Part shown: in pieces, positions 2,637 through 49,172 of the stretch
How the letters are laid out: each line of letters begins with the position of its first letter
How positions within the stretch are numbered: position 1 is the stretch's first letter
NCBI GenBank assembly: GCA_964552375.1
Contig: CAZKFX010000001.1
Span: 3,929 to 67,928 of the forward strand
From: an uncultured Candidatus Saccharibacteria bacterium
Lineage (GTDB): Bacteria; Patescibacteriota; Minisyncoccia; Minisyncoccales; CAZJYT01
Length of the DNA stretch: 64,000 bases
Reading direction: 5' to 3'
Notes under the pieces: model-generated
Told to the model about the DNA's origin: nothing
Seen by the model: only the letters and a program-made list of their open reading frames with translations
The model's database searches: none
Translations under genes and position numbers: made by a program

Positions 2637-3053
2637 ATGCCCTTTATTGTTCCTAAGTTTATTGAAAAAGAAGCAAAAATTGTAGGTCCTTTGACTTTCA
2701 GACAATTTGGCTTTTTCCTTTTTGCGGGTGTCATTGCTTTTTTCTTGTATTTTACAATTGGCAAAAAAAATCTTCCTTTGTTTTTGATAATTATAGGACC
2801 AGTAATAGCTATAGCAATGATTTTTGCATTTGGAAAGGTAGAAGGGAGAGATTTTCCAGTTTTTTTAAAAAATTTTTTGTCCCACCAACAATCTCCAAAA
2901 ATGTTTTATTTTCAAAAAAAGACAATAGCTCCTGAAATTTTGCATTTTAAAATTAAAAAAGGAGAAGAAGAAAAAAAAGAAATGGAGCCTGCAAAAGGTT
3001 TTACAAAAACAAGTTTGCAAAAAATGTTTGTTGAAATTGAAACCAAAAAATAG
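2637..3053 (+). CDS. VirB3/PrgI-like small two-TM protein (T4SS inner-membrane component candidate)
   Basis: N-terminal ...KIVGPLTFRQFGFFLFAGVIAFFLYF.. plus a second TM helix; sits immediately upstream of the VirB4 homologue, as in Gram-positive type-IV systems. Confidence 0.45.
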   Translation: MPFIVPKFIEKEAKIVGPLTFRQFGFFLFAGVIAFFLYFTIGKKNLPLFLIIIGPVIAIAMIFAFGKVEGRDFPVFLKNFLSHQQSPKMFYFQKKTIAPEILHFKIKKGEEEKKEMEPAKGFTKTSLQKMFVEIETKK

Positions 3054-3059
3054 CATTTT

Positions 3060-3689
3060 ATGGCAAAAGCTCCCAGTCAGCAATTTTTAGAGATAAAACA
3101 AATTAGAGATGGAGTGATGATATTGAAAGACGGAAGTTTAAGAAAGATTTTGGCTGTTTCTTCTTTAAATTTGGCAGTGAAGTCTAAAGAAGAACAAGAA
3201 GCCATTTTTTATCAATTTCAAAATTTCTTAAATTCTTTAGATTTTTTCTGTCAAATAATTGTTCAATCTCAAAGATTAAATATTACAGGATATCTAGAAG
3301 AATTAGAAAAATTAGAACAAAAACAACCAAATGAACTTTTAAAATTCCAAACTAGAAATTATCGCCAGTTTATCCAAAAATTAGTAGCTACAGGAACGAT
3401 TATGAATAAAAATTTCTTTTTGGTAGTTCCCTTTTATATGTCAGAACTTAAAGAAGTAATTCCCTCAAAAAAGGCAGGCAAAGGAGAGATGGCAGAACTT
3501 AAATTTCAATTGGCAAAAAATCAACTTGAACAAAGAGCTGAATTTTTAATATTAGGTTTAAGGAGGTGTGGTTTAAATGCAGCTCCCCTAAATAGTGAGC
3601 AATTAATTGAGCTTTTGTGGAATTTTTATCATCCAAAAGAAGCAGAAATGGGATATTATCCTTCTATTCCTTCTGAAATAATAAAATAA
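3060..3689 (+). CDS. VirB4/TraC-family protein, N-terminal domain (separate ORF)
   Basis: IRDGVMILKDGSLRKILAVSSLNLAVKSKEEQEAIFYQFQNFLNSL resembles the N-terminal region of PrgJ/TcpF/VirB4 proteins; ends TAA at 3687-3689, 1 nt before the ATG of the ATPase ORF. Confidence 0.5.
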   Translation: MAKAPSQQFLEIKQIRDGVMILKDGSLRKILAVSSLNLAVKSKEEQEAIFYQFQNFLNSLDFFCQIIVQSQRLNITGYLEELEKLEQKQPNELLKFQTRNYRQFIQKLVATGTIMNKNFFLVVPFYMSELKEVIPSKKAGKGEMAELKFQLAKNQLEQRAEFLILGLRRCGLNAAPLNSEQLIELLWNFYHPKEAEMGYYPSIPSEIIK

Positions 3690-3690
3690 A

Positions 3691-5538
3691 ATGAAGCTTC
3701 AAATTGCTAAAATTTTAAATAAATTTTTAAAAAGGAAAAAGCAAGCAAAAAAGTTAACTCTTCCTGTAGGAAAAGAGGAAGAATTAAAATTAGCAGATTT
3801 TATTGCCCCTCCCTCAGTTAAAATATTCCCAAATTATATCCAATTAGGAGAAAGATTAGCTAAAAGTTATTTTGTCTTTTCTTATCCTCGTTATTTAACT
3901 GCTGCCTGGGTCGCTCCTGTTATAAATTTAGATGTTCCTCTTTTAATGTCTTTTTTTATTCATCCTACCGATACAGGCTATATTTTAAAGAAACTCCAAA
4001 AAAGACTTACTGAAGTTCAGGCAGAAATTGCAGAAAGAGAAGAAAAAGGATTAATTAGAGATCCAACTTTGGAGACAGCTTATAAAGACATTGAGGAATT
4101 AAGAGATAAACTTCAGACAGGGCAAGAGAGAATGTTTAGATTTGGTCTTTATTTGACTGCTTTTGGAGATAGTGAAAGAGAATTAAAAGAGGTTGAAACT
4201 ACTTTAAGATCAATCTTGGAAGCAAAATTAGTCTACATTAAACCTTGTCTTTATCAGCAAAAACAAGGACTTCACTCTTGTTTTCCTTACGGTTTAGATC
4301 AATTAATGACTCATCATTTAATGAATACTTCTACCCTTTCAAGTATTTTTCCTTTTGTCTCTTTTGATTTAAGTGCAAATGAAGGAATTCTCTATGGGAT
4401 TAATCAACACAACAAATCTTTGGTTTTATTCAATAGATTTAGTTTAGAAAATGCTAATATGGTTGTCTTTGCAAAATCAGGTTCTGGTAAAAGTTATGCT
4501 GTCAAATTAGAAACCTTAAGACTGTTAATGACTGGTGTAGAAGTAATTATTATTGATCCTGAAAATGAATATAAACCCTTAGCAGAAGCTGTTGGAGGTT
4601 CTTTTATTAATATTTCTCTAAGTTCTCCCCATCATATTAATCCTTTTGATTTGCCAGAAAAATTAAGGCCAGATGAAAACCCAGAAGATGTTTTGCGTTC
4701 AAATATTATTAATCTGGTAGGTTTGATGCGTTTAATGTTAGGTGGATTAACCCCTGAAGAAGATGCAATAATGGATAGGGCTTTAACTGAGACTTATGCT
4801 GCAAAAGATATTACTCCAGAAACCAATCCTTCAACCTGGAAAGATAATACTCCCTTAATGGAGGATTTAGAAAGTGTTTTAGAAGGAATGGAGGGGGCAG
4901 AATCAATTTTGAAAAGATTGAGAAAATTCACCAAAGGAACTTATGCTCAATTTTTCAACCAACCTACTAATGTATCTTTGGATAAACCATTAATAGTCTT
5001 TGGAATTAGAGATTTAGAAGATGAATTAAGACCAATGGCAATGTTTATAATTATGAGATACATTTGGAATAAAGTAAGATCAGAACTTAAAAAAAGAATT
5101 TTGGTAGTAGATGAAGCCTGGTGGTTAATGCAATACGAAGACTCAGCTTCATTTTTGTTTGGATTGTGTAAAAGAGGAAGAAAATATGGACTGGGTGTCA
5201 CCACCATTACCCAAGATGTTAATGATTTTATGAAATCTACTTATGGCCAACCAATTATTACTAACTCAGCCTTGCAATTTTTAATGAAACAATCTCCAGC
5301 AACTATTGATGTAGTTCAAAAAGTTTTCAATCTAACTGAAGAAGAAAAGCATTTGCTTTTGGGAGCAGCAGTTGGAGAAGGTCTCTTTTTTGCAGGACCA
5401 AAACATGTTTTTTTAAGAGTAGAGGCTTCCTATGCAGAACATCAAATTATTACAACTTCTCCTGAAGAACTCAAAAAAATTAGAGAGAGAAAAGAAAAAA
5501 TGGAAAAATTAAAAAAAGAAGGAGAGAGAGAAATTTAA
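3691..5538 (+). CDS. virB4: VirB4/TraC/TrbE-family conjugal-transfer-type ATPase (ATPase domain)
   Basis: Walker A FAKSGSGKSYAVK; IIDPENEY; Walker B VVDEAWW; overall VirB4 layout. Confidence 0.8.
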   Translation: MKLQIAKILNKFLKRKKQAKKLTLPVGKEEELKLADFIAPPSVKIFPNYIQLGERLAKSYFVFSYPRYLTAAWVAPVINLDVPLLMSFFIHPTDTGYILKKLQKRLTEVQAEIAEREEKGLIRDPTLETAYKDIEELRDKLQTGQERMFRFGLYLTAFGDSERELKEVETTLRSILEAKLVYIKPCLYQQKQGLHSCFPYGLDQLMTHHLMNTSTLSSIFPFVSFDLSANEGILYGINQHNKSLVLFNRFSLENANMVVFAKSGSGKSYAVKLETLRLLMTGVEVIIIDPENEYKPLAEAVGGSFINISLSSPHHINPFDLPEKLRPDENPEDVLRSNIINLVGLMRLMLGGLTPEEDAIMDRALTETYAAKDITPETNPSTWKDNTPLMEDLESVLEGMEGAESILKRLRKFTKGTYAQFFNQPTNVSLDKPLIVFGIRDLEDELRPMAMFIIMRYIWNKVRSELKKRILVVDEAWWLMQYEDSASFLFGLCKRGRKYGLGVTTITQDVNDFMKSTYGQPIITNSALQFLMKQSPATIDVVQKVFNLTEEEKHLLLGAAVGEGLFFAGPKHVFLRVEASYAEHQIITTSPEELKKIRERKEKMEKLKKEGEREI

Positions 5539-6251
5539 TTTGTTTTGAAAATCAATTTTTGTTGAAAAATAGAAAAAAGAGTGCTTGATAACCAATACAA
5601 AGAAAGGGCGCAAGGCAGTTTTAGTAAAACTAAAAGAGTAAAAAGAGGAAAAAGAATAATCATTTCTTTTTGAAAAATATCTAAAATTTTACTCATTTGA
5701 TCTTTCTTTTGTTGAGAAAAAGAAAAAGGCTGCATTTTAAATTGAATAAACTGAAAAGCAGTTGCCAAAAAAGCTAAAAAGAAAGCTGGCCAATAATATT
5801 GTATTGTCTGAGGGTCTTTTTGAATAAAAAATGAAAGTGAAAGATTTATTTTTCCTAAAAATAATGGCTCAAAATCAAAAGATTGAACTCCTTCCCAAAA
5901 CAATCTAAACAAAGCTAAAAAAATAGGAATTTGCAAAATAGAAAAAAGACAACCTGAAAAAGGATTAAATTTTTCTTTTTTGTAAAGCTCTAAAATAGCT
6001 TTCATTTGTTTTTCTTTGTCTTCTTTGTGTTTTTCTTGAATTTCTTTTACTTTAGATTGAATTTGAGATAAACTCTTTTGAGATTTTATTGCCTTAAAAG
6101 AAAGAGGGGAAAGAATTAATTTAATTAAAATTGTAAAAATTAAAAGAGCTATTCCGAAATCTTTAATGGGGAGAATTTGATAAAGAAAAATTAAGGCCTT
6201 TAAAAGAGGAAAATAGAAAAAATCAATGATGGGATTGTGTAAAAAATTCAT
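5535..6251 (-). CDS. yidC: Membrane protein insertase YidC (short form)
   Basis: KEKFNPFSGCLFSILQIPIFLALF matches the YidC NP..GCLP.L.Q.PIF.AL signature; downstream of yidD-rnpA-rpmH. Confidence 0.85.
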   Translation of the reverse strand: MNFLHNPIIDFFYFPLLKALIFLYQILPIKDFGIALLIFTILIKLILSPLSFKAIKSQKSLSQIQSKVKEIQEKHKEDKEKQMKAILELYKKEKFNPFSGCLFSILQIPIFLALFRLFWEGVQSFDFEPLFLGKINLSLSFFIQKDPQTIQYYWPAFFLAFLATAFQFIQFKMQPFSFSQQKKDQMSKILDIFQKEMIILFPLFTLLVLLKLPCALSLYWLSSTLFSIFQQKLIFKTN

Positions 6252-6257
6252 AAAATT

Positions 6258-6467
6258 TTAAGGAAAATCTATTCCTCCAGGATGCCACAAAAAACATTTT
6301 TTTATTCTTTTTATAGTCTTTAAAACTCCTTTTAAAACCCCGTATTTTTTAATAGCTAAAAAAGAATATTCTGAACAAGAAGGAAAAAATCTACAGTTTT
6401 TCCCCAAAAAAGGAGAAATAAAAATTTGATAAAATCTAATTGCCTTCAAAATTAATTCTTGAAGCAT
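6258..6467 (-). CDS. yidD: Membrane protein insertion efficiency factor YidD
   Basis: CRFFPSCSEY ... HPGGIDFP signature. Confidence 0.85.
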   Translation of the reverse strand: MLQELILKAIRFYQIFISPFLGKNCRFFPSCSEYSFLAIKKYGVLKGVLKTIKRIKKCFLWHPGGIDFP

Positions 6468-6796
6468 TTTGTTTTTTGAAAGAGTTTTTGAATTGTCTTT
6501 TCAATCTCTCTAAATTTTAATTTTTCAATCCCAGGTAAAGCTATAAAAATTCCTTTCAGGCCTGGTTTTAATAAATCAAGTTTTAATCTTACTATCTCTG
6601 CCATTTGTCTTTTTAGTCTATTCCTTATTGTCGCTTTTTTTGAAACTTTTTTTGAAATTAAAAAAGCAAATTGACAAATACTATTTTTTGTTTCCAAAAA
6701 CCTAAAAAATAAAAAATCTTCTTTGGCCTTTTTTCCTTCTTTAAATATTCTCTCAAAATCTTTCCTCTTTGAGAGCCGGTTTTTTTTAGCCAACAT
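6452..6796 (-). CDS. rnpA: RNase P protein component
   Basis: N-terminal KKNRLSKRKDFERIFKEGKK; sits between rpmH and yidD. Confidence 0.8.
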   Translation of the reverse strand: MLAKKNRLSKRKDFERIFKEGKKAKEDFLFFRFLETKNSICQFAFLISKKVSKKATIRNRLKRQMAEIVRLKLDLLKPGLKGIFIALPGIEKLKFREIEKTIQKLFQKTKCFKN

Positions 6797-7080: not shown

Positions 7081-8427
7081 ATGAATGAAAAAGAGCTCTG
7101 GGAAGCAGTTTTGGCCCAAATTCAATTGCAAATTTCCCAGGCCAATTTTACTACTTGGTTCAAAGGGACAAGAATTATTGCTAAAAAAGAAAATGAAGTT
7201 TTAATTTCTACTCCTAACACCTTTGTTAAAGAATGGTTAGAACAAAAATATAAACATCTCATTTTCAAAATCATAAGTGGTTTTGAGCCTAAAATAAAAG
7301 AAATTAAATTTTTAATTGGAAAACAAAATTTAAAACCCAGCTTTTGGCAAGAAAGAGAAGAACAAAAACAACAATTAGAATTTGAACAACTAAAGGTAGA
7401 TAGTGAAACAAATCTTAATCCAAGATACACTTTTAAAAACTTTGTAGTAGGTAGCTTTAATGAATTAGCTTTTGCAGCAAGTCAGGCGGTAATAAAAAAT
7501 CCAGGAGTTCTTTACAATCCATTATTCATTTATGGAGGCGTAGGATTAGGAAAAACTCATCTTTTAGAAGCAACAGGTAATGAAATTGTTAAATTGTATC
7601 CTAAAAAGAAGGTAAAATATGTTCCTGCTGAAAGATTCATTAGAGAAGTTGTTGAGGGAATTAAAAATCAAAAAATAGAAGATTTCAAATTAAAATATCA
7701 AAAAGTTGATGTCTTAATTATTGATGATGTTCAATTTTTAGCAGGGAAAGAAAAAACCCAAGAAGAATTTTTCCATTTGTTCAATAGTTTGTACCAAAAA
7801 AACAAACAAATTATTCTTTCCTCTGATAGACCTCCTAAAATAATTCCTTCTTTGACAGAAAGATTAAGATCAAGATTTGAAGGAGGAATGATTGGAGATA
7901 TTTCTTTACCAGATTTTGAAACAAGGGTAGCTATTTTAAAAGTGAAAGCTCAAGAAAAAAATGTAGAGTTTTCAGAAGAAGTTTACAATTTTATTGCTCA
8001 ATCCTTTAAAAGAAATATTAGAGATTTAGAAGGAGCTTTAAACAGATTAATTGTTTATTATAAATTAAACAACAAAGTTCCTGATTTATCTATTACAAAA
8101 AAACTTTTAAAGAAAGTAATTTTGGGAGCTAATCAATGGACTACCCCTAACAAAATTATCTCTACTGTTGCCGAGTTTTATGACCTAACCCAAAAAGATT
8201 TGTTAAGCTCTTCTAGAAAAAAAGAAATCACAAAACCTCGCCAAATCGCAATGTATCTTTTAAAAACCGAATTGAAGAGTTCTTATTTATCTATTGCTAG
8301 GAAATTGGGAGGAAAAGATCATTCAACAGTAATTTATGCTTGTGAAAAAATTGCAAAACAATTGGAAAAAGATAAAAAATTAGAAGAGGAAATTGAGTTG
8401 ATAAAACAAAGAATATATAGTGGATAA
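7081..8427 (+). CDS. dnaA: Chromosomal replication initiator DnaA
   Basis: AAA+ GGVGLGKTHLL; DnaA domain IV; divergent from rpmH-rnpA. Confidence 0.95.
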   Translation: MNEKELWEAVLAQIQLQISQANFTTWFKGTRIIAKKENEVLISTPNTFVKEWLEQKYKHLIFKIISGFEPKIKEIKFLIGKQNLKPSFWQEREEQKQQLEFEQLKVDSETNLNPRYTFKNFVVGSFNELAFAASQAVIKNPGVLYNPLFIYGGVGLGKTHLLEATGNEIVKLYPKKKVKYVPAERFIREVVEGIKNQKIEDFKLKYQKVDVLIIDDVQFLAGKEKTQEEFFHLFNSLYQKNKQIILSSDRPPKIIPSLTERLRSRFEGGMIGDISLPDFETRVAILKVKAQEKNVEFSEEVYNFIAQSFKRNIRDLEGALNRLIVYYKLNNKVPDLSITKKLLKKVILGANQWTTPNKIISTVAEFYDLTQKDLLSSSRKKEITKPRQIAMYLLKTELKSSYLSIARKLGGKDHSTVIYACEKIAKQLEKDKKLEEEIELIKQRIYSG

Positions 8428-19431: not shown

Positions 19432-19507
19432 GGCGGTCGTAGCTTAATTGGCTAAAGCGCCTCGCTGTGGCCGAGGAGATCTGCGGGTTCGAGTCCCGCC
19501 GACCGCC
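19432..19507 (+). tRNA. tRNA-His (anticodon GUG) with genomically encoded G-1 and C73 discriminator, no encoded CCA
   Basis: G-1 + GCGGTCG/CGACCGC acceptor stem; anticodon loop CTGTGGC; GGTTCGAGTCC T-arm. Confidence 0.85.
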
Positions 19508-19513
19508 CAAAAT

Positions 19514-20068
19514 CTACCATCTTGCATTGTGAATTTTGAGCCAAAAACCTATTCTGTTTACTATTACGTGTAAAAAGAAAGTTGCTACTAAAATAAAAAG
19601 CCAAATTTTGATTTCTAATTTTAGCCAAGGTTGCAAGAAAATAAAAGCTCCAATTACATAATTTATCTGATCAAAAGGTAAAAATTTTGCTCCAGGTTTC
19701 AAATTTAATCTTCTTTTAATAAAGGCAAATAAAAGATCACCAAAGATTGCTCCCCCCGAAATTAAAAAGCCAAAAAAGAAAAGATTGATTGTTTCATAAT
19801 TTAAAATTGAAATTTTTTTAAAAAAAGAAAATTGATAAAGAAAAAACTGAATTAAAACCACGATTTCACCAACCAAAATTCCCAAAATTGCTCCTCGCCA
19901 GGTTTTATGAGAGCCAAAAATTGGCTTTCCTAAAAATTTTTTTTTAAAATCTATTTGTTTGGCTAAAAAATTAAAAAGATTAAATTTCTTTGCCAAAGGA
20001 GGAGTCATATTAGTAAAATAAGCTGGTAAAAAAAAGTAAAGACAAGATAAAATAAATTCAAAAGTCAT
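19514..20068 (-). CDS. CDP-archaeol synthase (CarS/DUF46)-like polytopic membrane protein
   Basis: FLPAYFTN and GSHKTWRGAILG resemble the CarS LLPAYFAN / GDGKTWRG motifs; 5-6 TM helices. Confidence 0.55.
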   Translation of the reverse strand: MTFEFILSCLYFFLPAYFTNMTPPLAKKFNLFNFLAKQIDFKKKFLGKPIFGSHKTWRGAILGILVGEIVVLIQFFLYQFSFFKKISILNYETINLFFFGFLISGGAIFGDLLFAFIKRRLNLKPGAKFLPFDQINYVIGAFIFLQPWLKLEIKIWLFILVATFFLHVIVNRIGFWLKIHNARW

Positions 20069-20071
20069 AAT

Positions 20072-20452
20072 TTAAGAAATAGCATTTTCAAAATGGTAAA
20101 TTTTAAATTTTTTGTTTTCAAAAATTATAGAAATAATATCAATTTGCCATTTACAATTTAGAGGAAATTTATTTTTTATTAGCCAACCCTCAGCACTTTG
20201 AATTAACCTTTTCTTTTTTTCAGAATTTACCTTTGCTTCGGGAAAAATAAAAAATTTTTTCTTTTTATTAATAGATTTTACCTCCACAAAACAAATTACA
20301 TCTTTCTTTTTTGCCACAATATCAATTTCTCCCCTTTTGCCAAAACGAGCAATTTTGAAAACAAAATTTCTATCCAATATTTTGTAGCCCTTTTCTATCA
20401 AGTAATTTTTAGCAATTTCCTCTCCTAATTTGCCACAATTTTTGGTATTCAC
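20072..20452 (-). CDS. yraN: YraN/UPF0102-family endonuclease-like protein
   Basis: GEEIAKNYLIEKGYKILDRN..GEIDIVAKKKDVICFVEVK. Confidence 0.75.
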   Translation of the reverse strand: MNTKNCGKLGEEIAKNYLIEKGYKILDRNFVFKIARFGKRGEIDIVAKKKDVICFVEVKSINKKKKFFIFPEAKVNSEKKKRLIQSAEGWLIKNKFPLNCKWQIDIISIIFENKKFKIYHFENAIS

Positions 20453-20489
20453 GAATTTTAGATTTTAAAAAAAGTTAGAGTAATTTTTG

Positions 20490-20563
20490 TGGACCTGGTG
20501 GGACTTGAACCCACATCAAGGCAATGCGAATGCCTCGTTTTTTCCAAATTAAACTACAGGCCC
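20490..20563 (-). tRNA. tRNA-Ala (anticodon CGC), no encoded CCA
   Basis: Reverse complement GGGCCTG...CAGGTCC with G3:U70; anticodon loop TTCGCAT; GGTTCAAGTCC T-arm. Confidence 0.8.
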
Positions 20564-23192: not shown

Positions 23193-23747
23193 ATGAGAAA
23201 AATTTTTCTCTTTCTCTTTATTTTGAAAATTTTATTTTTTCCTTTAATTTGTCAGGGAAAATTGAGGTATTATGAGGCATGTGAGAGTGTCTCAAGTGGA
23301 GTTTGTATGACTCCTACTTATACCGTTTGTTATGATGGTTTGGTGCCATGCGGAAAAGATGTTTGGTATGCTCAAGGATCTCATCCAGATTGTCCTACTT
23401 CCTCGCTTCCAATGAGTGTTACTACTACTCATTGTCAGCTTTGTCATTTTTTTATTATGTTTAATGGCGCAGTTGATTTTCTCATTTGGGAAATTGTTTT
23501 ACCTTTGGCGGTTTTAATGCTAATTGTAGGAGGAATTTTATATATTTTAGCAATTTTAGAGTTTGTTCCTGGAGGACCCCAGACTGTAAATCAGGCAAAA
23601 CAAGTAATTAGTGCTGTTTTCATTGGTTTATTTATTGTCTTTTCTGCCTGGTTTTTGGTCAATTTATTTTTCACCTTAATTGGAGTAGCTGATTGGACAG
23701 GATTAAAAGAAGGCTGGTTTAAAATTGATTGTCCAGTAGAACTATGA
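23193..23747 (+). CDS. Secreted Cys-rich domain with C-terminal 2-TM 'GG..V..AK..I' hairpin module (paralogue of 47592 and 48642 proteins)
   Basis: Signal-like N-terminus; about 12 Cys; LMLIVGGILYILAILEFVPGGPQTVNQAKQVISAVFIGLFIVF. Confidence 0.4.
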   Translation: MRKIFLFLFILKILFFPLICQGKLRYYEACESVSSGVCMTPTYTVCYDGLVPCGKDVWYAQGSHPDCPTSSLPMSVTTTHCQLCHFFIMFNGAVDFLIWEIVLPLAVLMLIVGGILYILAILEFVPGGPQTVNQAKQVISAVFIGLFIVFSAWFLVNLFFTLIGVADWTGLKEGWFKIDCPVEL

Positions 23748-24706: not shown

Positions 24707-25228
24707 ATGGCAAATTTTAAAATTTTTAATAAAACTTATTTTTTACCAAAGCTTTTAAGGAAAGAATTAAAAAAGCCTTTTGGGAGGCCTATTTTTGGCA
24801 CAAAAAAGGAAGTTTTGAGAGAATTTCAAAAAATTATTAAAGAAAAAAAATATAAAAAAATAATTACAGTAGGAGATTATTGCTCTTTAAATTTACCCTC
24901 TGATATTAGAATTTTTGATGGGAAAATAAAAAGAAAAAAAGTTAATTCCCGTTTGTTAAAAGATAAAAACCTTTTAAAATGTAAAAATCCGCCGGGAACA
25001 ATTCAAAAAGAAGTTTGGCAAAAGATTAAAAAGGCTTTAAAAGAAAACAAAAATATTTTTGTTGAGGGAGAAGAAGATCTTTTGGTTATTCCTACAGTTA
25101 TTTTGGCTGAAAGAAATTCTCTTGTTGTTTATGGATTTCCTCAAAAAGGGATTTGCTTGATTGAGGTTTCTTTTAAAACAAAAAAAATCTTTAGAGAAAT
25201 TTTAGAAGAATTTGAAAGCTCAAGCTAA
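24707..25228 (+). CDS. Hypothetical protein, possibly DUF359-like (archaeal GTP-dependent dephospho-CoA kinase-like pattern)
   Basis: ITVGDYCSLNLPSDIRIFDGKIKRK loosely matches the VGDVV...PD..I.DGKTKR pattern; size about 170 aa. Confidence 0.3.
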   Translation: MANFKIFNKTYFLPKLLRKELKKPFGRPIFGTKKEVLREFQKIIKEKKYKKIITVGDYCSLNLPSDIRIFDGKIKRKKVNSRLLKDKNLLKCKNPPGTIQKEVWQKIKKALKENKNIFVEGEEDLLVIPTVILAERNSLVVYGFPQKGICLIEVSFKTKKIFREILEEFESSS

Positions 25229-32560: not shown

Positions 32561-33295
32561 GTGATAATTAAAAAAGTAAAGACAAGGGTTTTTTTACCTC
32601 CAAAAGATGATTTATTTTCTTTAATCAAAGAATCTCTGACTAATTTAAAAGAAAATTCAGTGATTGTTTTTACTTCAAAAATTGTGTCTATTTGGGAAGG
32701 GAGATGTATAAGAAAAAGTTTAGTTAAAAATAGAGAAGAATTAATTAAAAAAGAGGCAAAATTTTATATTAAAGAAAATAATTCTTTTTTAACCATTAAA
32801 CACAATAGCATTTTACCTTCAGCAGGTATTGATGAATCAAACGGAGATGAATATTACATTCTTTTACCAAAACACCCCTTTTTAAGTGCCAAAAAAATTT
32901 ATTATTTTATCAAAACTACTTACAAATTAAAAAAATTTGGTATAATTATCTCTGATAGCCATACAATTCCCCTAAGAAAAGGAACAATAGGAATTTCTTT
33001 GGCATATTGGGGAATAAAGCCCTTAAGAGATTATAGAGGAAAGAAAGATATTTTTGGAAGAAAATTGAAAGTTACTCAATTAAACATTGTAGATTCATTA
33101 GCTGCAATAGCTAATTTAGCAATGGGAGAAGGCAAAGAAAGGACACCAATTGTGATAATTGAAAATTTAAAAGAAGTAGAATTTGAAGAAAAAGCAGGAA
33201 AAATTAATTACTTAAAAATAAATAGAGAAAGAGATATTTATAAACCTTTGCTTTCAGTATTTAAAAATGGAAAAAGTAAACATAAGGAAAAGTAA
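32561..33295 (+). CDS. F420-0:gamma-glutamyl ligase (CofE)-family protein
   Basis: VIVFTSKIVSIWEGR; SAGIDESN; GIIISDSH..PLRKGTIGISL; KDIFGRKLKVTQLNIVDSLAAIANLAMGEG matches the CofE-family architecture. Confidence 0.6.
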   Translation: MIIKKVKTRVFLPPKDDLFSLIKESLTNLKENSVIVFTSKIVSIWEGRCIRKSLVKNREELIKKEAKFYIKENNSFLTIKHNSILPSAGIDESNGDEYYILLPKHPFLSAKKIYYFIKTTYKLKKFGIIISDSHTIPLRKGTIGISLAYWGIKPLRDYRGKKDIFGRKLKVTQLNIVDSLAAIANLAMGEGKERTPIVIIENLKEVEFEEKAGKINYLKINRERDIYKPLLSVFKNGKSKHKEK

Positions 33296-33986: not shown

Positions 33987-35207
33987 ATGGCAAAAAAAAT
34001 TTTTTTGAGTGCCATTGATATTGGCTCTTCAAAAATTAAATTAGCTATAGCTAGAGAAGGAAAAGAAGGAATTGAGATTTTAAGTAATTTACAAATTCCT
34101 TCTTTCGGAGTGAGAAGGGGGGTGGTGATAAACCCAGAAAAGACCGCTGAGAAAATTGATTTTTTAATTGAAAAAGCTCAAGAAGAAACCGGAGGAAAAA
34201 TTAGAGAAGTTATCGTTAATATTGGTGGTGCCCATCTTTTTTCCAAAAATTCTCGGGGATTAGTTTCTGTATCCAGGGCGGATCAGAAAATTTCTCAACA
34301 AGATATTAACCGAGTTTTGGAAGCTTCAAAGACAGTTTCTTTGGGTTCCAATCAAGAAATTTTAGATATTTTTCCTAAAGAATTTATTGTTGATGGACAA
34401 CGAGGAATTAAAAACCCCCTTGATTTAAATGGGGTGAGATTAGAAGTAGAGGCAGTGGTTGTAGGAGGTTTTTCGCCTTATATTAGAAATTGTCGCGAAA
34501 CTATTTCTCTTTGTGATCTTTCTTTGATAGATTTGGTGCCCACTCCTTTGGCTAGTGCCTTGGGAGTTTTAAGGTCTAGAGAGAAAGAATTAGGAGTGGC
34601 GGTTGTAGATATCGGAGCTGGAACCACAAATTTATGTGTTTTTGAAGAACAAAATTTAATTCATTTAGCTGTCTTTCCAATGGGATCTGCAAATATTACT
34701 AATGATATTGCTATTTGTCTAAAAATAGATATTGATTTAGCAGAAAGAATAAAAATTAAATATGGAAGTTGCCTTAAAGAAAAAGCAGAAAAGAGATTAC
34801 ATAAAAATGAGAAAATAAAAATAGAAACCAAAGAAATCTTTTCTTTCAGTAAAAAATTGTTAGCTCAAATAATTGAAGCAAGAATTGTGGAGATTTTTAA
34901 AGAAGTTCAAAAGGAATTAAAGAAAATTGGCAAAGACCAAAAACTTCCTGCAGGAGTAGTTTTAACTGGAGGAGGTGCCAAACTTCCCTATTTAAAAGAG
35001 TTGGCTAAAAAATATTTGAGATTGCCCTGTAGAATAGGATATCCAATAGGTTTTCCTTCTCAATTTAATGATCTTTCTTTTTCTGTTTTGGCAGGTTTGA
35101 TTTTAAGAACTGTTGAAAGAGAGGACTTTTTCCCTGAAGAGAAGGTTTTAAATGGAAAAAAAATATTTGAGCATATTAAAAAAATTTTTAAGTTTTTTTT
35201 ACCTTAA
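33987..35207 (+). CDS. ftsA: Cell division protein FtsA
   Basis: Actin-like ATPase IFLSAIDIGSSKIKLAIA ... VVDIGAGTTN; followed by ftsZ. Confidence 0.85.
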   Translation: MAKKIFLSAIDIGSSKIKLAIAREGKEGIEILSNLQIPSFGVRRGVVINPEKTAEKIDFLIEKAQEETGGKIREVIVNIGGAHLFSKNSRGLVSVSRADQKISQQDINRVLEASKTVSLGSNQEILDIFPKEFIVDGQRGIKNPLDLNGVRLEVEAVVVGGFSPYIRNCRETISLCDLSLIDLVPTPLASALGVLRSREKELGVAVVDIGAGTTNLCVFEEQNLIHLAVFPMGSANITNDIAICLKIDIDLAERIKIKYGSCLKEKAEKRLHKNEKIKIETKEIFSFSKKLLAQIIEARIVEIFKEVQKELKKIGKDQKLPAGVVLTGGGAKLPYLKELAKKYLRLPCRIGYPIGFPSQFNDLSFSVLAGLILRTVEREDFFPEEKVLNGKKIFEHIKKIFKFFLP

Positions 35208-35213
35208 AAATCT

Positions 35214-36152
35214 ATGAGGTATCAACCCAAAATTAAAGTAATAGGAATTGGAGGGGCTGGAGGAAATACGATTTCCAGATTAAAAAAACTTAAAGCTGAA
35301 GGGGTAGAATTAATAGCTTTAAATACTGATGCTCAAGATTTGAAAAAGACAAAAGCTCATTTGAAAATTAGAATTGGAAAGAAATTAACTCAGGGATTAG
35401 GAACTGGAATGGATTGGCAAACAGGCGAAAGGGCAGTTATGGAACAAAAAGAAGAAATAAAAGAGGTTTTAAAAGATGCAGATTTAGTTTTTATTACTTT
35501 AGGATTAGGAGGAGGAACAGGTTCTGGCGGAGCCCCAGTGATTGCTGAGATTTGTAGAGAACTGAAAATTTTAACTTTGGTTGTAGCAACAATTCCTTTT
35601 TCTTTTGAGGGAGAATTAAGAAAAAAGATAGCCCAAATTACAATAGAAAAATTAAGACAAAAAGTGGATAGTTTAATTTTAATTCCCAATGATAAACTTT
35701 TGGAAAGTTTTGATTTTAAAATTTCTGTTTCTGAGGCTTTTTGGAGGGCTGATGAGATATTGAGAGAGGCAATTTTAGGAATTATAGATTTGGTAAGTGG
35801 CCCTGGTTTAATTAATGTTGATTTTGGCAACCTTAAAACGATTTTAAAAAATTCTGGAAAGGCTTATTTTGGTATTGGAAAAGGTTTTGGCGAAAAGAGA
35901 ATAGAAAAAGCAACAAATTCAGCTCTGTTTTCACCTTTAATAGAAATTTCTCCTAAAAAAGCCAAAGGAGTTTTGTTCAATGTTTCAGGTAGAGAGATTT
36001 CTTTGGGGGAGGTTGAACAAATAGCCCAATTTCTTTCAGAAAAAGTTCATCCCGAAGCTAAAATAATTTTTGGAGCCAAAGAGGATTTAAGCTTGAAGAA
36101 AGGAGAAATAAAAGTAATTTTAATTTTAACTAATTTTAATGACTCTTTTTGA
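35214..36152 (+). CDS. ftsZ: Cell division protein FtsZ (ftsA-linked copy; short, no conserved C-terminal peptide, T7 loop NVDFGN)
   Basis: GIGGAGGN; GLGGGTGSGGAP; T7 loop GLINVDFGNLKTIL; 312 aa ending ..ILTNFNDSF. Confidence 0.85.
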   Translation: MRYQPKIKVIGIGGAGGNTISRLKKLKAEGVELIALNTDAQDLKKTKAHLKIRIGKKLTQGLGTGMDWQTGERAVMEQKEEIKEVLKDADLVFITLGLGGGTGSGGAPVIAEICRELKILTLVVATIPFSFEGELRKKIAQITIEKLRQKVDSLILIPNDKLLESFDFKISVSEAFWRADEILREAILGIIDLVSGPGLINVDFGNLKTILKNSGKAYFGIGKGFGEKRIEKATNSALFSPLIEISPKKAKGVLFNVSGREISLGEVEQIAQFLSEKVHPEAKIIFGAKEDLSLKKGEIKVILILTNFNDSF

Positions 36153-36747: not shown

Positions 36748-37851
36748 ATGGCAAAAATTACTCTTTCTCTTATTAAAGCAGATATTGGTTCTGTTGGAGG
36801 ACATCTTAAACCAAGTGAAAAATTGTTAGACGCAGTAAAAAAGTATATAAAACAAAAAGGTAAAGATTTTATAATTGATTATTATGTTGGTTTTACTGGC
36901 GATGATGTTGCTATTTTAACAACTCATAGATTAGGAAAAAGAAATCCTAAAGTTCACAAACTTTGCTGGAATGCCTTTTTAGCTGGAACCAAGGTAGCTA
37001 AATCTCAGGGATTATATGGAGCAGGACAAGATTTGTTAGTTTCTGCTTTTTCTGGAAATGTTAAGGGAATGGGGCCCCAAGTAGCTGAAATGGAATTTGA
37101 AGAAAGACCCTCAGAACCATTTTTAATATTCTGCGCTGATAAAACCGAACCCGGAGCCTTTAATTTACCTGTTTATTTAGCTTTTACAGATCCGATGCAT
37201 TGTGCTGGTTTGATTTTATCTCCAAATTTAAAAAAGGGATTTAAATTTGTGATTATGGATGTTAGCTATACTAAAGGAGACAGAATAATTGAATTGGTAA
37301 GCCCAGAAGAAATTTATGATATTGCTTGTTTGTTAAGAGATACGGGGAGATTTGTAATTGAATCTGTTTGGTCAAGAGCAACTGGAGAGCAAGCTGTAAT
37401 AGCAAGCACTACTAGATTGCACAATATTGCTGGAAAATATGTAGGAAAAGACGATCCGGTAATGATTGTAAGAACTCAAAAAGATTTTCCAGCTACTGGT
37501 GAAATTCTTTCTCCATATACAATTGGGCATTTTGTTGCTGGGTTTATGAGAGGATCTCACAATGGACCATTAATGCCAGTAAAGAAGAATTCCCATATTT
37601 CTTTTTTTGATGGTCCTCCAGTGGTTTCTTGTTTGGCTTTTTCTGTAAAAAATGGAAAATTGACAGAACCAGTAGATTGTTTTGACCACCCCTATTGGGA
37701 TTGGGTAAGAGATAGAATTTCTCAAAAAGCTCAAGAAATTAGAAGACAGGGATTTTTTGGCAATGCCATGCTTCCAATGTCAGAATTAGAATATACTGGA
37801 GTAATGGAAAGCTTAAAAAAATTAGAAAAGAAATTCTTCATTAGAAAATAA
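36748..37851 (+). CDS. fbp: Archaeal-type bifunctional fructose-1,6-bisphosphate aldolase/phosphatase (FBPase class V)
   Basis: N-terminal MAKITLSLIKADIGSVGGH matches the class V IKADIGS..GH start; about 367 aa. Confidence 0.75.
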   Translation: MAKITLSLIKADIGSVGGHLKPSEKLLDAVKKYIKQKGKDFIIDYYVGFTGDDVAILTTHRLGKRNPKVHKLCWNAFLAGTKVAKSQGLYGAGQDLLVSAFSGNVKGMGPQVAEMEFEERPSEPFLIFCADKTEPGAFNLPVYLAFTDPMHCAGLILSPNLKKGFKFVIMDVSYTKGDRIIELVSPEEIYDIACLLRDTGRFVIESVWSRATGEQAVIASTTRLHNIAGKYVGKDDPVMIVRTQKDFPATGEILSPYTIGHFVAGFMRGSHNGPLMPVKKNSHISFFDGPPVVSCLAFSVKNGKLTEPVDCFDHPYWDWVRDRISQKAQEIRRQGFFGNAMLPMSELEYTGVMESLKKLEKKFFIRK

Positions 37852-40541: not shown

Positions 40542-41300
40542 ATGTTAGGTTATATCATTTTGGGAATTTTACAAGGAGTATTTGAATGGCTTCCCCTTTC
40601 TAGTGAAGCAATAGTGACTTTGGCAAATGAGTTTTTTTTAAAAAAAGAAATTTCAAACTCAATTGATCTTTCTTTGTTTTTACATTTTGGAACTCTTTTG
40701 GCAGTTTTAATTTATTTTAAAAAAGACTGGAGAGAAATTTTAGAGTTAAAAAATATTAAACTGCTTTATTTTTTAACAATTGCGACAATTACTTCTTTAA
40801 TTTTGGGTTTTCCTTTATATAAATTGGTTAAAAATGTTGCTGTAGGAAATTTTCTCTTGTTAATAACGGGTTTTGGATTATTTTTTACAGGTTTTTTAAG
40901 AAAAAAAGAAAAAAAATTTAAAAATAGGGATTACAATTTTAAATTAGCCTTAATTGCAGGTTTTTTTCAAGGTTTAGCAGTAATTCCAGGAGTTTCCAGG
41001 TCAGGAGTTACTATTTTTGCTCTTTCTTTGGGAGGGTTTTCTTTTCCCGAGATTTTAAAAATTTCTTATATGATGTCTTTGCCGGTTGTTTTTTTGAGCT
41101 CTTTTTATCTTCTTTTAAAAAATCCGATTTTGATTTTTGAGGGTTGGATTTCTTTAATTTTTAGTTTTTTAGTTGGGATTTTTACTTTAGATTTTTTGAT
41201 AAAATTGACAAAAAAAGTAAACTTTTCAAAAATTGCTTTCTTTTTTGGTTTTTTATGTATTCTTTCAGCTTTAATCAATTTTTTTGTGAAATTTTACTAA
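40542..41300 (+). CDS. uppP: Undecaprenyl-diphosphatase (BacA/UppP)
   Basis: GILQGVFEWLPLSSEA and PGVSRSGVTI motifs; 7-8 TM helices. Confidence 0.75.
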   Translation: MLGYIILGILQGVFEWLPLSSEAIVTLANEFFLKKEISNSIDLSLFLHFGTLLAVLIYFKKDWREILELKNIKLLYFLTIATITSLILGFPLYKLVKNVAVGNFLLLITGFGLFFTGFLRKKEKKFKNRDYNFKLALIAGFFQGLAVIPGVSRSGVTIFALSLGGFSFPEILKISYMMSLPVVFLSSFYLLLKNPILIFEGWISLIFSFLVGIFTLDFLIKLTKKVNFSKIAFFFGFLCILSALINFFVKFY

Positions 41301-48641: not shown

Positions 48642-49172
48642 ATGAAAAAAGGAATTGCTATTTTAGGAACAATTTGTCTTTTGGGAGTTTTAATTTTGCC
48701 AGCAATAAGTGAAGCTGCAAGGACAACGACAAACTGTTGTCAGATTAGAAGGACATTTTCTTTTAATGGAAAGACTTGGTTGTCTGGAAGATGTTATGGA
48801 GAAATAGGAATAGAATATGGTACGACAGCTGTTACTACTACTGCTACAGGATGTGAAACACCAGGAGGAGTTGTACTATGTGAAGCCGCACCAGGACTTG
48901 GAGTGGAGCCAGGTAAAAATGTAGAACAAAGACCTGACTGGGGTGCTGGATGTATGCTAAATAGTGTCTATCGGATTTCAGACTTTATTTTCATGATTTT
49001 GATTGTAGTGGCAGTAATTATTGGTTTGGCAGGAGGTTATAATATTTTGACTGCTGGAGGTGATGCTGAAAAAGTGAACAAAGGAAGAGACTTGATATTG
49101 TATGCTATTATTGGAATGGTAGTAGCTTTCTTTGCAAGAGCTATTCCTTCAATTGTATCTCTGTTGATATAA
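48642..49172 (+). CDS. Secreted Cys/Thr-rich domain with C-terminal 2-TM 'GG..V..AK..I' hairpin module (pilin-like candidate)
   Basis: Signal peptide ..AISEAA; IVVAVIIGLAGGYNILTAGGDAEKVNKGRDLILYAIIGMVVAFF. Confidence 0.4.
   Translation: MKKGIAILGTICLLGVLILPAISEAARTTTNCCQIRRTFSFNGKTWLSGRCYGEIGIEYGTTAVTTTATGCETPGGVVLCEAAPGLGVEPGKNVEQRPDWGAGCMLNSVYRISDFIFMILIVVAVIIGLAGGYNILTAGGDAEKVNKGRDLILYAIIGMVVAFFARAIPSIVSLLI

Follow-up and report, generated by a model that had tools for sequence, protein, structure and literature searches.

A 64-kb stretch of contig CAZKFX010000001.1, hereafter the window, belongs to a Parcubacteria/Paceibacteria bacterium of the candidate phyla radiation (CPR, Patescibacteria) and encodes a small membrane protein of the CarS (cytidine diphosphate (CDP)-archaeol synthase) family. 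The chances are about even that this CarS-like enzyme is the CDP-lipid synthase of its cell, substituting for bacterial CdsA, with phosphatidate derived from scavenged fatty acids as its substrate. The evidence includes (i) membership in family PF01864 and a fold that matches archaeal CarS, (ii) conservation of the cytidine triphosphate (CTP) loop and of the first Asp of the catalytic dyad, (iii) the gene neighborhood in relatives and (iv) the lack of a canonical CdsA in the DNA examined. The second Asp of the dyad is replaced by Asn, and this fixed substitution is the main reason against filing the protein as an orthodox equivalent of CarS or CdsA without an assay.

Family Membership and Fold

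Against the Pfam model PF01864 the CarS-like protein gives a full-length match (111.9 bits, E = 4.4e-32, profile positions 3-175 of 175; cutoff 22), while the CdsA model PF01148 gives only a partial match of 28.3 bits over residues 54-131. The NCBIfam CarS equivalog NF003114 (CDP-2,3-bis-(O-geranylgeranyl)-sn-glycerol synthase) scores 130.8 bits (E = 4.6e-38), under its curated cutoff of 148. By sequence the protein is a member of the CarS family, and a score under the cutoff does not imply functional orthology with CarS. The sole solved homolog found by sequence is A. pernix CarS (ApCarS, 5GUF; E = 1.8e-4 with the single sequence and 2.6e-8 with a clade profile). An AlphaFold2 model based on a 23-sequence alignment (pLDDT 88.7, pTM 0.83) has five long helices (residues 3-28, 57-77, 96-120, 134-149 and 153-176). 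A Foldseek search of the PDB with this model returns 5GUF as the best match (probability 1.00, TM-scores 0.73/0.84, root-mean-square deviation 2.1 Å, 168 columns, 22% identity) and does not return CdsA (4Q2E). The five-transmembrane (TM)-helix fold of ApCarS is thus predicted for the CarS-like protein. An earlier reading of this DNA from its letters only (the sequence-only reading) had described a 184-residue polytopic protein with FLPAYFTN and KTWRG motifs and assigned it to CarS/DUF46; the protein is present exactly as described, and the assignment is borne out by 5GUF in both sequence and fold and by the comparison of PF01864 with CTP_transf_1 (PF01148), in which PF01864 is the best match.

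CdsA (e.g., T. maritima 4Q2E/4Q2G and E. coli b0175, the latter taken from the annotated K-12 record) is of the same superfamily and shares the catalytic core, with the KTWxG loop, GD and KR in alignment. By contrast, CdsA has ~270-285 residues, nine TM helices arranged in N-terminal, dimerization and catalytic domains, and a full-length PF01148 match. The CarS-like protein has 184 residues and five predicted TM helices, is missing the N-terminal and dimerization domains as well as the PGHGG segment, and aligns with E. coli CdsA in BLASTP at 21% identity over 116 columns. A CdsA in disguise is ruled out by the profile scores, length and fold. In the favored reading, the protein would be an integral-membrane CTP:lipid-phosphate cytidylyltransferase of the PF01864 family.

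The CarS-like open reading frame (ORF) is a genuine gene. A chance ORF is ruled out by 710 homologs at E ≤ 1e-3, by the 2096 clusters (50% identity) that an exhaustive profile search returns at the same threshold (175 of them at E ≤ 1e-30) and by a dN/dS of 0.147 between the window gene and that of a 92%-identical relative (L037). The best 120 homologs are 181-198 residues long and 61-92% identical, and wherever a name is given it is Patescibacteria, Parcubacteria or Paceibacterales. When each GTDB species was scanned through a single genome, the locus was confirmed in at least 99 species-level Patescibacteria genomes; the 80 loci retained of 99 are all from Patescibacteria-type metagenome-assembled genomes, including complete Nealsonbacteria genomes. 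CP179887.1 and CP179889.1 are complete genomes with the gene. NCBI and JGI already annotate homologs as CDP-archaeol synthase, so the occurrence of PF01864 proteins in CPR bacteria is implicit in database annotation. In the literature searched, no paper ties CarS or PF01864 to Patescibacteria. What appears undescribed is the compact Parcubacteria clade nearest to DPANN CarS, its conserved lipid gene island (at odds with the common view of these bacteria as devoid of a lipid pathway) and the fixed Asp-to-Asn exchange at a dyad position held to be universal.

Active Site

Conservation was counted in an alignment of 202 clade members, 45 columns of which are invariant. The invariant or near-invariant residues include P15, Y17, N20, K55, G59, G110, D111, K118, R119, D133, Q134, Y137 and H167. 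Of these, D111, K118, R119, D133 and Q134 are found in all 202 members and K55 and G59 in 201, while R58 is kept in 198; R120 is also present in the CarS-like protein. The KTWRG loop aligns with PGKTWQG of E. coli CdsA, and the alignment indicates that KTWxG is a superfamily motif common to CarS and CdsA. The sequence-only reading had taken both of its motifs as marks of CarS and not CdsA; this fails for KTWRG, as E. coli CdsA has GKTWQG at the aligned position, while the family assignment itself stands. Related P-A-Y-x-A-N forms of the FLPAYFTN motif are carried by DPANN relatives.

The catalytic dyad was mapped indirectly, from the CarS-like protein to E. coli CdsA and on to the crystal chains of T. 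maritima CdsA (TmCdsA), whose GD Asp (residue 239) and final DRID Asp (residue 269) correspond to D219 and D249 once the 20-residue tag is subtracted. D111 is the equivalent of D219, the first dyad Asp. At the position of D249, the second dyad Asp, where ApCarS has the last Asp of its DQLD, the CarS-like protein has N136, which is found in 200 of the 202 clade members and is under purifying selection. The protein departs from the full catalytic core (G-D...S-F-x-K-R-R and D-Q-x-D) at a second position, where the signature Ser of GDxxxSFxKRR is Ala (A115 in 192/202). In CdsA the Asp-Asp dyad holds a Mg2+-K+ center that is key to catalysis, D249 is the sole dyad residue kept across all CDP-diacylglycerol synthases, and S. 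mitis CdsA is inactivated when the Asp at the D219 position is changed to Asn (PMC7018664). The fixation of Asn at a dyad position believed universal provides a natural experiment on the metal center of the superfamily.

Among the 50%-identity cluster representatives DQxD is predominant and DQxN occurs in 11; N, S or V is also found at the second-Asp position in a few other CarS-family clusters. The second Asp is retained in ApCarS (DQLD) and in DPANN relatives (DQ[IL]D), both of which also have the signature Ser. Within the clade only two members, L029 and L032, have the canonical Ser115 and Asp136, and these may represent the ancestral state. Their CarS-like genes (3556-4101 and 10001-10546, respectively) are without the MscS-TM-like and FakA-DegV neighbors described below, have a gene of the NAD-epimerase family upstream and are followed by thiolase, DUF359-cytidylyltransferase-like and UppS genes. 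There are only two D-type loci, and 11 of the 65 N-type loci are without the MscS-TM-like partner; these counts do not speak for or against a link between N136 and the partner.

Lipid Gene Island in Relatives

The genomic context was analyzed by clustering the ORFs of 82 Patescibacteria loci and annotating recurrent clusters via representatives; ~20 kb was examined per relative (10 kb on either side of each locus), and counts are over loci with sufficient flanking DNA. Of the 78 loci that have 3 kb or more on one side, 64 include one or more bacterial phospholipid genes; the window is among the 14 exceptions. The typical order is CCA-adding enzyme, HAD, YraN, PlsY, HAD and DegV, then a CDP-alcohol phosphatidyltransferase (CDP-OH_P_transf) and a PHP phosphoesterase on the opposite strand, followed by the CarS-like gene, an MscS-TM-like gene, a FakA(Dak2)-DegV fusion, thiolase, DUF359, DUF362, BioY and SDR. 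Three endings are observed after SDR: (i) FabA-NMO, (ii) FabA-NMO and PlsC or (iii) UbiA, a geranylgeranyl reductase (GGR) and a polyprenyl synthase.

Genes for fatty acid incorporation are frequent in the island. In 39/48 loci FakA-DegV is encoded no more than 8 kb downstream of the CarS-like gene; the fusion of FakA (Dak2 and middle domain) to a DegV/FakB domain is exemplified by L007 (11227-13011) and seen in 55 other loci, with one to four additional DegV genes nearby. PlsY is encoded downstream in 25/48 loci and upstream in 24/53, with two copies in 26 loci, and the two paralogs can flank the CarS-like gene (e.g., L076 9426-10004 and L062 15745-16422). The upstream PlsY passes its equivalog cutoff (159 vs 137), while the downstream copy is divergent (99.6 bits); a second PlsY might perform the second acylation in organisms without acyl carrier protein (ACP). 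PlsC is found in nine loci of cluster c24, two of them in complete Nealsonbacteria genomes. Thiolase is present in 24/48 loci, 19 of 53 relatives have YraN in the 4 kb upstream, and UppS is found in 9/48 loci, which by analogy echoes the adjacency of cdsA and uppS in the E. coli K-12 record.

The CDP-alcohol transferase (21/53 loci) and PHP (23/53) genes are both divergent and upstream of the CarS-like gene. The transferase has an intact DxxDGxxAR...G...D...D motif, as checked by hand. Its best models are archaetidylinositol-phosphate (AIP) synthase, at 112 bits against an unreached cutoff of 180, and phosphatidylinositol-phosphate (PIP) synthase. Among solved structures it is closest to mycobacterial PIP synthase, AF2299 and IPCT-DIPPS, not to PgsA or PssA. 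As it resembles PIP synthase, which uses CDP-diacylglycerol, and the AIP model, the transferase needs a CDP-lipid donor. A phmmer search with E. coli CdsA of 1.24 Mb of six-frame-translated Patescibacteria DNA, the window included, finds matches to the CarS-like genes only.

The exchange to N136 could reflect an altered chemistry in which the protein is, for example, a CTP-dependent kinase of a polyprenol, a dolichol-like alcohol or diacylglycerol with a role in carrier-lipid recycling. Dolichol and phytol kinases are members of the CTP-transferase superfamily, the near-fixation of N136 and A115 is paired with a preserved CTP loop, the island often includes UppS, prenyl synthase and GGR-family reductases able to saturate polyprenols, and BacA is encoded in the window (40542-41300). 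Such a kinase is nevertheless very unlikely: it would leave the neighboring transferase without its donor, the same transferase pairing is common to DPANN CarS with the canonical Asp, and the N, S or V at the same position in other CarS clusters suggests that this Asp may be less critical in CarS than in CdsA.

The most conserved neighbor is the MscS-TM-like gene, which is found at the +1 position in 41/48 loci and is absent from the window. It encodes a protein of ~217 residues with two PF05552 'mechanosensitive channel conserved TM helix' segments (L007 10549-11220; L091 4098-4787). Its start overlaps the CarS-like stop codon by ~7 nt, which suggests that the two genes are translationally coupled and that their products are perhaps complexed. 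A membrane partner so closely tied to the gene, together with the loss of one dyad Asp (in S. mitis CdsA an exchange to Asn at the other dyad position is inactivating; PMC7018664), would fit a dead or structural CarS relic kept as a partner or regulator, possibly of the MscS-TM-like protein. This account is highly improbable, given that the other active-site residues are kept in 202/202 members, dN/dS is 0.15, the gene persists in at least 99 species with tiny genomes and no other CDP-lipid supplier for the transferase is seen in the 1.24 Mb searched with E. coli CdsA.

Proposed Route to Phospholipids

The simplest account of the island is a Kennedy-type pathway assembled from mixed parts. In this pathway, a fatty-acid kinase (FakA-DegV and the extra DegV/FakB proteins) would convert scavenged fatty acids to acyl-phosphate, PlsY would use the latter to form lysophosphatidate, and phosphatidate would come from PlsC or perhaps from the divergent second PlsY. 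The CarS-like enzyme would then transfer CMP from CTP onto a glycerolipid phosphate, most likely phosphatidate, to form a donor of the CDP-diacylglycerol type. The PIPS/AIPS-like transferase and PHP phosphoesterase would add, then trim, an inositol-phosphate-type head group to yield the phospholipid. The CarS-like gene is read as a stand-in for CdsA because the CdsA step is the only one without a canonical bacterial enzyme and the gene is at the place where such an enzyme is expected. The proposed reaction and pathway position equal those of CdsA, and in relatives the gene is found among PlsY, PlsC, UppS and a head-group transferase; this position is seen in relatives and not in the window, and is a matter of functional analogy, not homology. 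We infer the reaction, the substrate and the retention of activity with Asn at the second dyad position, as well as that the enzyme is the only one of its kind in the cell.

The proposed role agrees with what is reported of CPR lipids. CPR polar lipids are fatty-acid based, and Nealsonbacteria have PlsY and PlsC but are without PlsX or ACP (PMC7242380). Nealsonbacteria also grow on E. coli lysate, from which the authors conclude that archaeal lipids are not needed (10.1101/2022.04.20.488981). CPR bacteria have ordinary-looking membranes despite recurrent descriptions of them as incapable of lipid synthesis; the CarS-like gene and its neighborhood in relatives point to a concrete phospholipid route. 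Probst et al. had asked how PlsY is supplied with acyl-phosphate without PlsX, and the FakA-DegV of the island is a plausible source. If the CarS-like enzyme does act in CdsA's place, an enzyme of an archaeal family performs a core step of bacterial membrane synthesis.

Several points weigh against a CdsA-like role. With N136 and A115 in the active site, the activity of the protein is not assured. Purified archaeal CarS favors digeranylgeranylglyceryl phosphate (DGGGP) over phosphatidate, and archaeal CarS fails to complement an E. coli cdsA mutant (PMC9385802, which for AfCarS cites Jain et al. 2014); use of phosphatidate would thus require a shift in specificity. The absence of CdsA covers ~20 kb per relative and 64 kb of the window genome, and FakA, PlsY, PlsC and the transferase are not partners of the gene in the window itself. 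Isoprenoid genes are also part of the island: the window has GGR, and relatives encode the mevalonate pathway and an IdsA-like synthase as well as UbiA and GGR.

Isoprenoid Genes and the Archaeal Affinity of the Protein

The isoprenoid genes raise the alternative of a true CarS-type enzyme that activates an isoprenoid glycerol phosphate, either ether-linked or mixed acyl/prenyl, which is unlikely but carries some weight. Such a substrate would be either made by the UbiA-family prenyltransferase, geranylgeranyl diphosphate (GGPP)-type synthase and GGR of the island or taken from an archaeal host; as a variant, the enzyme might be a promiscuous sole cytidylyltransferase that uses phosphatidate as well. 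Family, fold and nearest relatives are those of archaeal (DPANN) CarS, and the neighboring transferase scores best against the AIP synthase model. A block of SDR, UbiA, GGR, polyprenyl synthase, NUDIX, HMG-CoA synthase and HMG-CoA reductase is found in L091, L092 and L014, and the best model of the polyprenyl synthase, scored on the cluster representative from L063, is methanogen IdsA/GGPP synthase. A GGR-family gene that passes TIGR02032 is 6 kb from the CarS-like gene in the window, and at least 136 UbiA homologs are found in the same lineages, also on the same contigs. Some Paceibacteria parasitize methanogens (PMC12281837), homologs of GGGPS and DGGGPS are reported in one Parcubacteria genome (PMC7852524), and CarS activity in crude membranes tolerates ester bonds and glycerol-3-phosphate stereochemistry (PMC9385802).

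Other observations speak against an isoprenoid substrate. GGGPS and G1PDH are found neither in the window nor among the annotated recurrent ORF clusters of the 82 loci. The UbiA protein matches AfUbiA, of undefined substrate, better (E = 2e-10) than it matches DGGGP synthase (E = 0.009), and no NCBIfam cutoff is even approached; its carriers are not expected to make quinones. The trio is adjacent in few loci (UbiA in three, GGR in 7/48 and prenyl synthase in 6/48), and the mevalonate pathway, prenyl synthase and UppS are required anyway for undecaprenyl phosphate, the carrier lipid of peptidoglycan. Lipids of the CPR size fraction are fatty-acid based (PMC7242380), and Nealsonbacteria did not require archaeal lipids (10.1101/2022.04.20.488981). 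The sequence-only reading had proposed the CTP-dependent activation of either an isoprenoid or a scavenged lipid; the genomic context of relatives favors the lipid made from scavenged fatty acids, and the isoprenoid is the less favored of the two.

Isoprenoid genes are contiguous with the phospholipid genes in L091 (10001-15914), L014 (16444 onward) and L093 (9493-11932). At the position of the window GGR, relatives encode a FabK-like NMO enoyl reductase domain fused to FabA, and the window GGR-family flavoprotein could act either on prenyl chains or as a substitute enoyl reductase. Three cluster representatives from unnamed taxa (P0146, P0180 and P0243) have a PAP2 or DUF212 domain fused N-terminal to the CarS domain; PAP2 is the lipid-phosphate phosphatase superfamily, and the fusions count in favor of the CdsA-like role.

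Archaeal CarS (e.g., ApCarS 5GUF and A. fulgidus AfCarS) shares with the CarS-like protein the full-length PF01864 match, a length of ~180 residues, five TM helices and the motifs P-A-Y-x-x-N, K-T-W-R-G, G-D...K-R-R and D-Q. The CarS-like protein is set apart by its bacterial host, a score under the NF003114 cutoff, only 22% identity to the crenarchaeal ApCarS, Asn for the second Asp and Ala for Ser; no G1PDH or GGGPS is seen nearby, and its neighbors in relatives are bacterial genes of fatty acid incorporation. Its nearest named relatives are the CarS proteins of Nanoarchaeota, Nanoarchaeia and Woesearchaeota, which are of the same length, share 38-44% identity with the window protein and score 170-188 bits against the clade profile (e.g., MFC1801695.1, HLC65901.1 and PIN70709.1). 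The DPANN genes are likewise coupled to a CDP-alcohol phosphatidyltransferase, the end of which the CarS gene overlaps by one base. Unlike in the CarS-like clade, DPANN CarS keeps SFxKRR and DQxD, the contigs have archaeal markers and the transferase is co-directional, in one case of the serine type with phosphatidylserine decarboxylase alongside.

In a neighbor-joining tree of 146 cluster representatives, the window group forms a monophyletic core amid unnamed and DPANN sequences. The tree is effectively unrooted, most neighbors are without taxon names, and P0125, a tree neighbor with canonical motifs, is on a bacterial-looking contig with RecG, a sortase and a DksA-type protein and is probably also bacterial. 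The affinity by sequence is thus compatible with gene transfer between DPANN and CPR in either direction, and the habitats shared by DPANN archaea and CPR bacteria fit such a transfer.

A more elaborate scenario, which is quite unlikely as a whole, is that the Parcubacteria clade acquired a DPANN-type CarS, fixed the Asp-to-Asn exchange and uses the protein as the sole CDP-lipid synthase of a hybrid island that makes mixed acyl/isoprenoid phospholipids. The parts of this island would be FakA-DegV, two PlsY and PlsC on the one hand and the mevalonate pathway, IdsA-like synthase, GGR, UbiA and AIP-synthase-like enzyme on the other. If true, the lipid divide between bacteria and archaea would have been crossed naturally in CPR. 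Cloacimonadota and other bacteria of the FCB group also have homologs of archaeal membrane-lipid enzymes beside bacterial ones (Villanueva et al. 2021, PMC7852524). In the FCB group GGGPS and DGGGPS are present, CarS is absent and CdsA is presumed to be used (PMC7852524). The CarS-like clade is the reverse, with CarS present and no GGGPS, clear DGGGPS or CdsA seen in the DNA examined, and thus approaches the lipid-divide debate from the opposite side.

Gene Surroundings in the Window

In the window the CarS-like gene is detached from the lipid island and yraN is the sole neighbor kept (Table 1). The stop codon of yraN is 3 nt ahead of the CarS-like ATG, and the two genes are therefore probably co-transcribed. 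The gap between the end of tRNA-His(gtg) and the CarS-like stop codon is 5 nt. The flanks are those given by the sequence-only reading, with tRNA-His on one side and yraN and tRNA-Ala on the other. The tRNA-His site is the break point of the island, as relatives have the MscS-TM-like and FakA-DegV genes there. CdsA, PlsY, PlsC, FakA, a head-group transferase, GGGPS, UbiA and G1PDH are absent from the 64 kb of the window. On the opposite strand, 6-9 kb away, is a block of DUF362, BioY, SDR, GGR and FabA-like genes; it is a probable displaced remnant of the island, because relatives have the same families downstream of the CarS-like gene. The DUF359 gene is 4.6 kb from the CarS-like gene.

Table 1. 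Location of the CarS-like gene, its motifs and associated features in the window.
Feature	Position	Strand	Details and basis
CarS-like coding sequence	19514..20068	-	ATG start, 184 aa; ORF call
FLPAYFTN motif	20009..20032	-	Residues 13-20, in TM1; located by hand on sequence
KTWRG loop	19892..19906	-	Residues 55-59; located by hand on sequence
GDLLFAFIKRR	19709..19741	-	Residues 110-120; alignments to 5GUF and E. coli CdsA
DQIN	19661..19672	-	Residues 133-136; alignments to 5GUF and CdsA sequences
YraN/UPF0102 gene	20072..20452	-	126 aa, directly upstream of CarS-like gene; PF02021
tRNA-Ala(cgc)	20489..20563	-	Upstream of yraN, same strand
tRNA-His(gtg)	19433..19508	+	Convergent with CarS-like gene
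DUF362	9829-10863	+	Pfam
BioY	10876-11481	+	Pfam
SDR/KR	11518-12255	+	Ketoreductase type; Pfam
GGR-family flavoprotein	12258-13421	+	Pfam; TIGR02032 182.9 vs cutoff 158.8 (passes)
FabA-like dehydratase	13411-13908	+	Pfam
DUF359 protein	24707..25228	+	Pfam; family recurs in island of relatives, 13/48 loci

The host is a bacterium of the Patescibacteria, in agreement with the bacterial origin first supposed. Archaeal contamination of the contig is ruled out by the bacterial dnaA, rnpA, yidC, FtsZ/FtsA, BacA and bacterial-type ribosomal protein genes in the window, and the Patescibacteria synteny common to all 80 genome loci also counts against it. The window has a GC content of ~30%. Two relatives have discordant titles: L051 (DAOSDI010000010.1, 'Candidatus Pacearchaeota archaeon') encodes YraN, PHP, an N-type CarS-like protein, an MscS-TM-like protein and bacterial GyrA, while L027 (DATKUR010000013.1, 'Candidatus Humimicrobiaceae bacterium') has a typical Parcubacteria CarS-like island. 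Both are probably mis-binned or mislabeled, which for L051 follows from its CPR synteny and bacterial GyrA.

Other Features of the Window and Relatives

The window also carries two ftsZ genes (Tubulin and FtsZ_C domains; 16144-17310 and 35214-36152), the latter beside ftsA (33987-35207). A type IV secretion module (2637-5538) includes a PrgI-like protein and a VirB4/TraC-like ATPase in two ORFs (3060-3689 and 3691-5538) and adjoins yidC (5535-6251), rnpA (6452-6796) and dnaA (7081-8427), the presumed replication origin. T4SS_pilin genes are located at 23193-23747 and 48642-49172.

Besides DUF359, the window encodes FBPase_3 (36748-37851) and an F420_ligase-like protein (32561-33295), all three of families typical of archaea. 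DUF359 is the archaeal dephospho-CoA kinase family and FBPase_3 the class V FBP aldolase/phosphatase. In one relative (L003, positions 1-925 of the locus, on a 695-kb contig), GyrA holds an intein with a LAGLIDADG endonuclease.

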